Below, one piece after another: positions 58,700-60,062 of a DNA stretch of 64,000 nt. Numbering within the stretch: position 1 is the stretch's first letter; every line of letters begins with the position of its first letter. The translations under genes were made by a program, and so were the position numbers. Source of the stretch: Candidatus Shapirobacteria bacterium (GTDB taxonomy: Bacteria; Patescibacteriota; Microgenomatia; UBA12405); contig JBAYIT010000001.1 in NCBI GenBank assembly GCA_041665485.1, positions 140,270 to 204,269 on the forward strand. Direction: 5' to 3'. The notes beneath the pieces were generated by a model. The model saw only the letters and a list, made by a program, of their open reading frames with translations, did not search any database and had not been told where the DNA came from.

Positions 58700-58835
58700 G
58701 GAGATAACAAATTACAAATCTACAAGTTCCAAGCAAATCACAAATTCAAAATTACAAGTTCCAGATGTTATATTTGAAATTTGTTTTTTGGAAATTGTTT
58801 GGAAATTGTTTTTTGTGAATTTGGAATTTCTGTGA
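58700..58835 (+). other. ORF-less intervening sequence / expansion in the 23S 5' domain (helix 9-10 region), built from AATTTCCAAACAAAT-type word repeats
   Basis: About 130 nt inserted between ...CACGGAGATAAC and GTGAAGCGGTGGC... where E. coli has a short helix; the two halves are roughly self-complementary. Confidence 0.5.
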
Positions 58836-59921
58836 AGCGGTGGCGGGTAAGCCGGGGAAGTGAAACATCTCAGTACCCGGAGGAAAAGAAATCGTATTCC
58901 GTCGTAAGACGGACATAGGAGATTCCGTTAGTAGCGGTGAGCGAAAACGGAAAAGCCCAAACCTGTCGCAAGACAGGGGTTGTAGGGTTTGGTATAAGGC
59001 ATTGAAAATCCAGAAAAACGTCCTGGAATGGGCGGCCAAAGAGGGTGAGAGCCCCGTATTTAAATGATAAGTAAATGCTGACCAAATACCTGAGTACTAC
59101 GGGACACGCGAAATGCCGTAGGAACCTGGGGAGACCAATCTCCAAGGCTAAATATCTCGACTGACCGATAGTGAACTAGTACCGTGAGGGAAAGGTGAAA
59201 AATACTGCAGATCGCAGGGTGAAATATATCTGAAACCATTTGCTAACAAACAGACAAAGCTCCGTAAGGGGTGATGTCGTGCCTATTGAAGAATGAGCCC
59301 GCGAGTGTTCTCAATTACCAAGTTTAATCCCCGATGGGGTGGAGGCGTAGCGAAAGCAAGTCTGAATAAGGCGATTAGGTAATTGGGGATGACCCGAAGC
59401 CACTTGAGCTAACCCTGGGCAGGGTGAACTTCGATGAAAATCGAAGGGAGGCCCGTACGGATCAGAGCTGCAAATCTGTCCGATGACTTGGGGTTAGGGG
59501 TAATATGCCAATCGAAAGTGGGAATAGCTGGCTCTCTCCGAAATATATATAGGTATAGCGCTTGGTGTTCAACGACGGGGGTAGAGCTACTGGATGAATG
59601 TTTTCAGCGCAAGCTGAGGCATTTAACCAAACTCCGAATACCGTTGTTCTAAGCCAGGCAGTCAGTCCGACCGGGCTAAGCTGGCCGGGCAAAAGGGGAA
59701 GACCCCAGACTCTCATCTAAGGTCTCTAAATCTATGCTAAGTGGGAAAGGTAGTGATTTTCCTCAGACAGGCAGGAGGTTGGCTCAGAAGCAGCCATCCT
59801 TTAAAGAAAGCGTAACAGCTCACTGTTCGATTTGTCCCGACGCAAGTTGGGACGGAGGAAGATTGCGCCGAAAATGTAACGAGGCTAAAGCATAGTACCG
59901 AAGGTGGAGAACTCGTCCTTT

Positions 59922-60062
59922 GGACGAGAAATTTCAATAATCAATAACCAATTTCCAAACAATAACCAATAACCAATTTCCAAATTTACAAACTTTTGTT
60001 TGTTATTTGAAATTTGTTATTTGTTTGGAACTTGTAGGTTTGTAATTTGGAATTTCCCGTCC
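59922..60062 (+). other. ORF-less intervening sequence at the helix-45 position of 23S, a known IVS site
   Basis: GGACGAGAAATTT...AATTTCCCGTCC form a terminal stem around about 115 nt of A/T-rich word repeats, inserted before the conserved CAGAGGATGGGTTGGTAGG. Confidence 0.55.

Follow-up and report, generated by a model that had tools for sequence, protein, structure and literature searches.

What are the two hairpin-like blocks that lengthen the 23S rRNA gene of a Candidatus Shapirobacteria bacterium, and where did they come from? The gene is complete within a 64,000-nucleotide (nt) stretch of assembly GCA_041665485.1 (contig JBAYIT010000001.1, positions 140,270 to 204,269), hereafter the window, where it occupies 58537-62103 on the forward strand (Rfam LSU_rRNA_bacteria, 2143 bits, model positions 1-2925) and measures 3567 nt against the 2925 positions of the model. 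We find that the blocks at 58694-58836 (+; IVS1) and 59921-60063 (+; IVS2) are extended stem-loops of the intervening sequence (IVS) type, without an open reading frame (ORF), that stand in place of the terminal loops of two surface helices of the 23S rRNA, helix 10 (H10) and helix 45 (H45). We further argue that they probably derive from a family of hairpin repeats dispersed at the DNA level in the Microgenomates group of the candidate phyla radiation (CPR).

In bacteria, an IVS takes the place of the tetraloop of H9, H25 or H45, is removed by RNase III and can also carry an ORF for the S23p/IVP protein (PMC4990558). H45 is the classic site, occurrence among relatives is sporadic, and both ORF-less and S23p/IVP-bearing forms exist (PMC4990558). 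Short ORF-less insertions that are not introns are common at known IVS sites in the 23S genes of CPR bacteria (PMC11270868). More than 30 years after the discovery of bacterial rRNA IVSs, the literature still calls their origin and function, and those of the S23p/IVP protein, unclear, with a transposon remnant and a mobile element as the competing ideas (PMC4990558).

Two inserts on the tips of 23S rRNA helices

Relatives that keep the gene order DedA, tRNA-Ala, 23S, 5S, S1 provided three comparison 23S genes (L002, L007 and L009), each about 83% identical to the window gene. The relative nearest by its S1 protein (L010, 88%) is represented by a contig that begins at S1 and hence lacks the 23S gene. 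Pairwise alignment with the E. coli 23S rRNA placed three large insertions, one near 58729-58839 and the others at 59921-60063 and 61418-61699, alongside several small ones, and E. coli together with the three syntenic Shapirobacteria genes set the boundaries of the two 143-nt inserts. An earlier note on this DNA had claimed two ORF-less 23S insertions at 58700-58835 and 59922-60062; both exist, with ends displaced by a few nucleotides. Its placement of the second at helix 45 also stands, whereas its "helix 9-10" for the first narrows to H10 and not H9, because in the Rfam alignment (cmscan) 137 nt fall against 6 model positions in the loop of the hairpin at model positions 150-178, which comes after H9.

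In L002, L007 and L009, a GCAA or GTAA tetraloop caps an H10 stem of 4-6 base pairs (bp), and L007, L009 and E. coli have a short H45. Each insert lies exactly on such a terminal loop: IVS1 replaces the GNRA tetraloop of H10, and IVS2 stands on top of H45. IVS1 is absent from all three comparison genes and IVS2 from L007 and L009, so that alignment to related genes sets both off as extra sequence with a sporadic distribution. IVS2 is in one of the recognised IVS helices (H9, H25, H45), and IVS1 is in a helix adjoining the classical sites. At the H45 position L002 (GCA_026395315.1) carries an unrelated 337-nt insertion (6886-7221) with a GATGGACAACAC/GTGTTGTCCATC stem; it encodes an ORF of about 83 amino acids (aa) that is not an IVP homolog.

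The window comes from a metagenome assembly, and the inserts are of low complexity and recur elsewhere in the genome, so reads of intergenic hairpins might have been misjoined into the rRNA gene. We consider such an artefact highly improbable. The identical 3567-nt gene, inserts included, is found in two assemblies that differ in source and pipeline (ENA k141_1025756; L006, JGI 3300037810, Ga0376277_0013139), each insert replaces exactly one terminal loop and is coaxial with its rRNA helix, and the inserts differ from each other and from all other copies.

Each insert folds as one long hairpin

Fold prediction bears out the long imperfect hairpins that had been proposed for both inserts. Each forms a single imperfect hairpin of about 55 bp, mostly A-U, with a minimum free energy (MFE) of -46.1 to -46.7 kcal/mol and 56 pairs for IVS1 and of -46.6 to -47.6 kcal/mol and 53 pairs for IVS2; the pairs are counted within the 143-nt inserts, and the values of -46.7 and -47.6 were computed on 148- and 150-nt stretches that include flanks. 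IVS1 consists of a G-poor 5' arm that extends to about 58765, an apex at about 58768-58771 and a C-poor 3' arm. Since arms of such composition (G-poor 5', C-poor 3') would pair to some extent anyway, dinucleotide shuffles were complemented by arm-wise and block-wise ones as controls. The z-scores for IVS1 and IVS2, respectively, were -5.9 and -8.0 against dinucleotide shuffles, -6.4 and -8.3 against shuffles within arms, and -4.5 and -4.9 against shuffles of 7-mer blocks within arms. The in-register pairing of both inserts exceeds what composition gives.

Neither an inverted-repeat scan nor a blastn minus-strand self-scan picked up the two hairpins. Their arms are imperfect, carry indels and rely in part on G-U pairing, and the evidence for them comes from RNA folding with shuffle controls. 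In a raw sliding-window scan of MFE along the window, G+C content dominated the values and the ranking was uninformative.

Group I or group II intron identity was considered for IVS1 and IVS2 and rejected, as no intron model matched even at E<=10. The only covariance-model matches of the two inserts were to generic long-hairpin families, far below gathering scores. Searches of all frames of the window and of the syntenic loci turned up no IVP homolog. An encoded S23p/IVP protein, which is an optional feature of IVSs, is thus missing from the 143-nt inserts, though their arms are homologous to arms that surround IVP genes elsewhere, as described below.

Both arms of both inserts are internally repetitive, with periods of 7, 11, 14, 18 and 25 nt reported by Tandem Repeats Finder. 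The 5' arm of IVS2 holds a 25-nt unit twice (59935-59984, 96%) and is the longest G-free run of the window (69 nt). More generally, the coding strands show strong asymmetry: C-free runs of at least 28 nt on the coding strand number about 170 in the window and G-free runs only 23, and the longest and clearest G-free runs are word arrays.

One element in two orientations, with half-copies elsewhere in the window

Over 108 nt spanning both arms, IVS1 and the reverse-complemented IVS2 are 78.7% identical, whereas in direct orientation the two share only pieces of 20-37 nt. The inserts are therefore one element present in two copies of opposite orientation.

The earlier note held that both inserts are built from words that also occur in intergenic DNA and inside an O-antigen-ligase-like coding sequence. 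That sharing holds for longer words than those it quoted. An exact 31-mer on the minus strand of IVS2 (60019-60049) recurs at 24508-24538 and, with 2 mismatches, in IVS1 at 58708-58738 (3 hits against 0 expected). An exact 21-mer of IVS2 (59942-59962) recurs at 29162-29182 (5 hits with no more than 3 mismatches, 0 expected), an exact 19-mer is also common to IVS2 and the 29161-29182 region, and AATTTCCAAA gave 7 hits against 1.16 expected. The two 14-mers quoted in the note are exact at 29156, 54738, 29176 and 29245, but inside the inserts they occur only with 1-2 mismatches.

A one-arm copy of the element at 24494-24568 (+), which contains the exact 31-mer of IVS2, lies in frame within ORF 23357-24667, a gene for a Wzy_C/O-antigen-ligase family protein; the same ORF contains a G-free heptamer array, TAATTTC x4.4, at 24130-24191 (+). 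Word arrays at 29149-29302 (+), composed of AATTTCC x4.3 and two copies of AATTTCCAAACAAATCACAA and containing the exact 21-mer, occupy the spacer between ORFs 26177-29134 and 29363-30628, and a further intergenic array at 54730-54769 (+) lies upstream of a GH18 gene (54829-56100). A family profile search returned half-elements at 24503-24574 and 29145-29280 in the window, and also in the L010 contig.

Single-arm arrays in frame within coding sequences are found both in the Wzy_C gene, at the two positions just given, and in L010, at 2024-2094 and 3092-3178 of a gene for a RadA/Sms-like protein. Words of the family therefore invade coding sequence too, where they translate to peptides of the K-Q-F-P-N type that are apparently linkers or loops.

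Solo hairpins and IVP cassettes in other genomes

A 23-mer from the shared core was scanned against 596 Gb of sequence (one genome per GTDB species, a set that did not return the window's own genome) and matched a single contig of one other Shapirobacteria metagenome-assembled genome (MAG), L011, which makes the 23-mer lineage-specific. Our census covers the window and the sampled contigs. In L011 the words surround a 120-aa ORF in the interval between two protein genes, with G-poor arrays upstream and complementary words downstream. The ORF encodes a 23S_rRNA_IVP/four-helix-bundle protein (PF05635, 71 bits). At 3885-4110 of the same contig the 5' arm of this cassette has grown to three tandem units of about 82 nt, a large-scale tandem duplication within an arm.

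The locus is conserved. The closest homologs of the L011 protein share its gene order, comM (Mg chelatase)-IVP-yraN (UPF0102)-dprA, in at least three other genomes. The comM-IVP-yraN locus was found in L011, L029, L030-L033 and L034, and one of these contigs comes from the same metagenome as the window organism. The same word arms flank the IVP ORF in every case and pair across it over 17-54 bp in the MFE fold of the whole cassette. In Woesebacteria-like contigs (L035-L038), IVP homologs that are 63-66% identical lie at a uvrD-IVP-femAB locus between inverted word arms of the AATAACC/AAATTCC kind, which pair across the ORF over 23-43 bp with energies of up to -49 kcal/mol. Two Microgenomates clades thus each have the IVP gene with inverted word arms at a different conserved locus, and of the IVP genes looked up (L011, L029-L034 and L035-L038) none lies within an rRNA gene.

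ORF-less copies also occur outside rRNA. A degenerate 21-mer scan of metagenome contigs gave 17 hits, 15 of which were conserved coding sequence of unrelated organisms and were discarded. The remaining two are full-length, ORF-less solo hairpins in spacers between co-directional genes (L017 7075-7211 and L024 2004-2138), one upstream of dnaK and the other between two other genes; they are 86% identical over 121 nt and have different flanking genes. The family profile added a second full copy in L017, at 5966-6094, 1.1 kb away. The suggestion in the earlier note that elements like those in the rRNA exist elsewhere is thus borne out by solo hairpins in operon spacers and by arms around a 23S_rRNA_IVP gene.

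The cassettes and the rRNA inserts can be aligned arm by arm. Cassette 5' arms align to positions 14-64 of IVS1 at 87-96%, and cassette 3' arms to positions 81-122 at 88-95%; the latter stretch starts at the IVP stop codon. The arms match IVS2 on the reverse strand, so that IVS1 has the orientation of the cassettes and IVS2 the opposite one. Nine elements (IVS1, reverse-complemented IVS2, four cassettes with their ORFs removed and three solo hairpins) form a colinear alignment of about 125 nt with a conserved core, ACAAGTTCCAAACAA paired with TTGTTTGGAAATTGT. By this homology IVS1 corresponds to an IVP cassette in sense orientation that lacks the ORF, with everything missing from slightly ahead of the start codon as far as the stop codon, and IVS2 is an ORF-less element of the cassette type in inverted orientation.

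All members share the same make-up: one arm is composed of A/C/T-rich words about 7 nt long, the other of the complements of these words. Judged by their sequences, they take three forms: ORF-less hairpins in 23S rRNA, ORF-less solo hairpins in spacers, and split arms that enclose a PF05635 gene and would pair across it. Copies stand at unrelated loci and in both orientations (IVS1, IVS2, two in L017 and one in L024, with arms at 24494-24568, at 29149-29302 and at two L010 sites). Between arms of this kind IVP (PF05635) was the sole ORF found, and it is not a known transposase. We favour, as the probable explanation, a quasi-palindromic repeat family of about 130-140 nt in Microgenomates-group CPR bacteria, of which the two inserts would be diverged copies that did not arise in place.

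The layout of IVS1 could also be read in the opposite direction. The insert runs from the 5' arm of the cassette through about 16 nt into its 3' arm, which starts at the IVP stop codon, and has an ATG at the place of the cassette start codon. An IVP-encoding IVS might once have stood in H10 and/or H45 and lost its ORF by deletion, leaving the stem, while the cassettes outside rRNA either escaped from it or are ancestral. This would be a sub-case of the explanation above with a different direction and history, and decay of the ORF within an IVS is documented in Coxiella (PMC4990558). However, none of the 23S genes examined (L002, L007 and L009) has an insertion that combines these arms with an IVP gene, solo hairpins without an ORF are frequent outside rRNA, and IVP ORFs reported inside CPR rRNA genes occupy other sites (PMC11270868). 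An ORF could equally have entered a hairpin loop. We regard decay of a resident ORF-bearing IVS as unlikely.

A further proposal concerns the protein. The word hairpin and the PF05635 protein might form one system, in which the IVP cassette is the ORF-bearing master form and its protein acts in trans on the ORF-less hairpins of rRNA, operon spacers and coding sequences, either to copy or insert them or to bind and process them as RNA. We offer this as a speculation whose truth we doubt. If correct, it would give a function to the long-unexplained S23p/IVP protein and identify the first source copies of rRNA IVSs outside rRNA.

Replication slippage and possible growth in place

The window is rich in tandem words. 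It holds 58 tandem arrays, 34 of them with a period of 7, 14 or 21 nt. Per 10 kb, the window has 5.3 arrays of these periods and family-bearing contigs have 3.2-7.9, compared with 0-0.5 in the three sampled syntenic relatives, which lack the inserts and are essentially free of period-7 arrays. Outside rRNA, 16 of 52 arrays lie in intergenic DNA, which makes up 8% of the window. Replication slippage is evidently active in this genome.

Slippage could in principle account for the inserts by itself. Genome-wide slippage of short words would have extended H10 and H45, slippage on one arm being compensated by slippage on the other, and produced expansion segments that are kept within mature 23S rRNA; resemblance to other loci would then reflect a shared slippage bias and not descent. 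The tandem periodicity of both arms of both inserts, including the doubled 25-nt unit of IVS2, fits this idea, as do the abundance of arrays in the window, their near absence from insert-free relatives and the three tandem 82-nt units in the L011 arm. The pattern recalls the cryptically simple expansion segments of eukaryotic rRNA, which Hancock and Dover in 1988 reportedly found to share simple motifs with the rest of the genome and to compensate slippage on the opposite arm. In both cases the same simple motifs appear in different variable regions of one rRNA and genome-wide. The present case differs in being bacterial, in the homology of whole elements to copies outside rRNA and in that the inserts may be excised instead of retained.

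Shared bias is hard to reconcile with colinear homology over 108-125 nt to elements at unrelated loci and in other genomes, which includes an ordered, non-repetitive exact 31-mer. Nor does growth in place predict that the inserts match each other best in opposite orientation, and IVS1 keeps a segment containing the IVP stop codon. An origin by slippage in place is unlikely on these grounds, and we retain descent from the dispersed hairpin family as the probable origin of the inserts.

Proposed spread, persistence and processing of the inserts

Under descent from a dispersed family, the hairpins would spread at the DNA level, through transposition-like insertion or through recombination between copies, as suggested by the occurrence of both orientations and of homologous copies at unrelated loci in different genomes. 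Within rRNA genes an element would persist only at helix tips that tolerate an extra stem. Slippage would then remodel the arms, and we propose this as the source of their 7-, 11-, 14-, 18- and 25-nt periodicities.

The transcribed inserts would be cut by RNase III, which could act on imperfect duplexes of about 55 bp in the pre-rRNA. Excision of both inserts from pre-23S rRNA is suggested by the length of the duplexes, by precedent in other bacteria and by the presence of a canonical pre-23S processing stem. That stem is long (about 30 bp), pairing 58508-58538 with 62100-62129 (both +; duplexfold -47.2 kcal/mol).

The third large insertion, which the earlier note did not cover, bears on the predicted product. 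It lies at 61418-61699 (+), after about E. coli position 2500, and is a 282-nt ORF-less group I intron outside the repeat family; its match to Rfam Intron_gpI is full-length but weak (21.6 bits, E 0.0025, below the gathering score). The insertion is precisely absent from L002, L007 and L009. With both inserts cut and the intron spliced, the 23S rRNA would be left as fragments of about 157, 1084 and 1758 nt that stay together within the ribosome.

Several observations weigh against this explanation as a whole. Excision, fragmentation and retention as expansion segments are all compatible with the sequence data, and the window ORFs scanned yielded neither an RNase III domain nor an rnc gene. Nor did a target-site duplication, a transposase or any other mobility function come to light; direct repeats at the junctions of IVS1, IVS2 and the L017 and L024 hairpins were not evident by inspection of alignments whose outer ends are poorly conserved. 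The IVP cassettes are syntenic within each clade, and thus look vertically inherited and not currently mobile. The two rRNA copies are the only full-length hairpins within the 64-kb window and 9.5 kb beyond it, all others being single arms. Low sequence complexity inflates similarity scores somewhat, and H10 is not among the classical IVS helices. Additionally, in consensus folds of 4 and of 9 family members the consensus pairs are almost all invariant. With almost no covariation, the family fold rests on thermodynamics and conserved palindromy.

Comparison with known systems and significance

The inserts resemble classical IVSs, known at H45 in Salmonella, Leptospira, Coxiella, Campylobacter and Yersinia and at H9 in alpha-proteobacteria, in forming a stem-loop of terminal inverted repeats that replaces the tetraloop of a surface helix, in the use of H45 and in sporadic occurrence. 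In contrast to classical IVSs, their stems are made of short tandem words, one copy is in H10 instead of H9 or H25, the two copies are mutually inverted within one gene, and homologous stems occur outside rRNA, both solo and around a free-standing IVP gene. Classical IVSs are excised by RNase III, whereas the window inserts are known from sequence and predicted fold.

Short ORF-less insertions at known IVS sites of CPR 23S genes have already been published, and those that Tsurumaki et al. (2024) describe at sites 23IS2 and 23IS4 share with ours their occurrence in CPR bacteria at known IVS sites, a length below 200 bp and the lack of an ORF or intron (PMC11270868). That survey makes no mention of repeats (the word "repeat" occurs 0 times in its main text), of copies outside rRNA or of IVP-gene flanks. 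Neither the repeat family nor its connection with the IVP cassette appears to have been published.

Palindromic dispersed repeats of other bacteria, some of them resembling miniature inverted-repeat transposable elements (MITEs), include REP/BIME, Correia, RUP, ERIC and the cyanobacterial Nezha, and some are targets of RNase III or RNase E when transcribed. They are likewise hairpins of about 100-150 nt that occupy operon spacers in either orientation as many diverged copies. The window family differs from them in showing neither a target-site duplication nor a cognate transposase, in entering rRNA helices, in placing single arms in frame in coding sequences and in having arms that are internally tandem-repetitive. 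Many tandem 7-nt arrays at gene boundaries are also a feature of the heptanucleotide STRR repeats of heterocystous cyanobacteria and the TAACTGA repeats of large sulfur bacteria, the latter being found together with rRNA introns and MITEs. The window belongs to another phylum and has other words, and we know of no described link between those repeats and rRNA IVS stems or IVP genes. The heptamers at first pointed to a cyanobacterial or sulfur-bacterial source of the window, a reading that was discarded on the protein matches to Shapirobacteria. A literature search likewise returned no paper linking heptamer repeats with CPR bacteria.

These findings provide a concrete and testable link between rRNA IVSs, a dispersed hairpin repeat and the unexplained IVP protein. 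The same stem occurs in four settings: in two rRNA helices, solo between protein genes, around a free-standing syntenic IVP gene and, as single arms, translated within proteins. The ancestral form, the movement of copies and any common processing are thus open to comparative genomics and metatranscriptomics. The family would give an origin for part of the uncharacterised short insertions present, according to the 2024 survey, in most CPR 23S genes. Excision of the inserts would mean that the 23S rRNA of this organism exists as three pieces, in addition to needing its intron spliced.

Other features of the window

The 23S gene is preceded by tRNA-Ala (58248-58322, Rfam) and followed by 5S rRNA (62244-62360, Rfam) and a gene for an S1-domain protein (62465-63568) that is 100% identical to an NCBI MAG protein of Candidatus Shapirobacteria and whose near matches are all from Shapirobacteria or Woesebacteria. 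No 16S rRNA gene was found by Rfam within the 64-kb window. The rRNA genes are unlinked, and about 3.9 kb separate tRNA-Ile from the tRNA-Ala-23S-5S cluster (54296-58322), an interval that carries a GH18 gene, a DedA gene and a 391-aa ORF without a Pfam or NCBIfam match.

Further families of tandem words lie at gene boundaries, built on AGAGATAAGAACTA, AGAATCT/GAATCTAC, TTAGATC and AAAGTCCAA. Examples fall into four groups: arrays at 30980-31011, 32962-33006, 40279-40321 and 40737-40781; at 7803-7836, 15796-15829, 15946-15973, 37846-37880 and 43634-43670; at 5249-5282, 11828-11865 and 46674-46707; and at 40342-40380 and 46066-46097. A second small repeat, at 29202-29231 and 23573-23603, consists of a G+C-rich hairpin (CCGCCAGAGGCGG-ACTTCGCTTCGCTTCG and GTCCGTCTGAGACGGAC-TTCGCTTCGCTTCG) followed by CTTCG x3. 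One copy is intergenic and one lies in the Wzy-like ORF, and both are embedded in heptamer words.

Finally, tRNA-Ile(GAU) at 54296-54370 is followed directly by a 91-aa ORF for a GIY-YIG endonuclease (54375-54650). A second copy of the 3' half of the tRNA lies at 54650-54705, with a different, palindromic 'anticodon arm' (CGACGTGACGTCG), and a third, partial copy lies upstream at 54250-54287. The whole region, 54250-54705, looks like a homing-endonuclease insertion that duplicated part of the tRNA gene.

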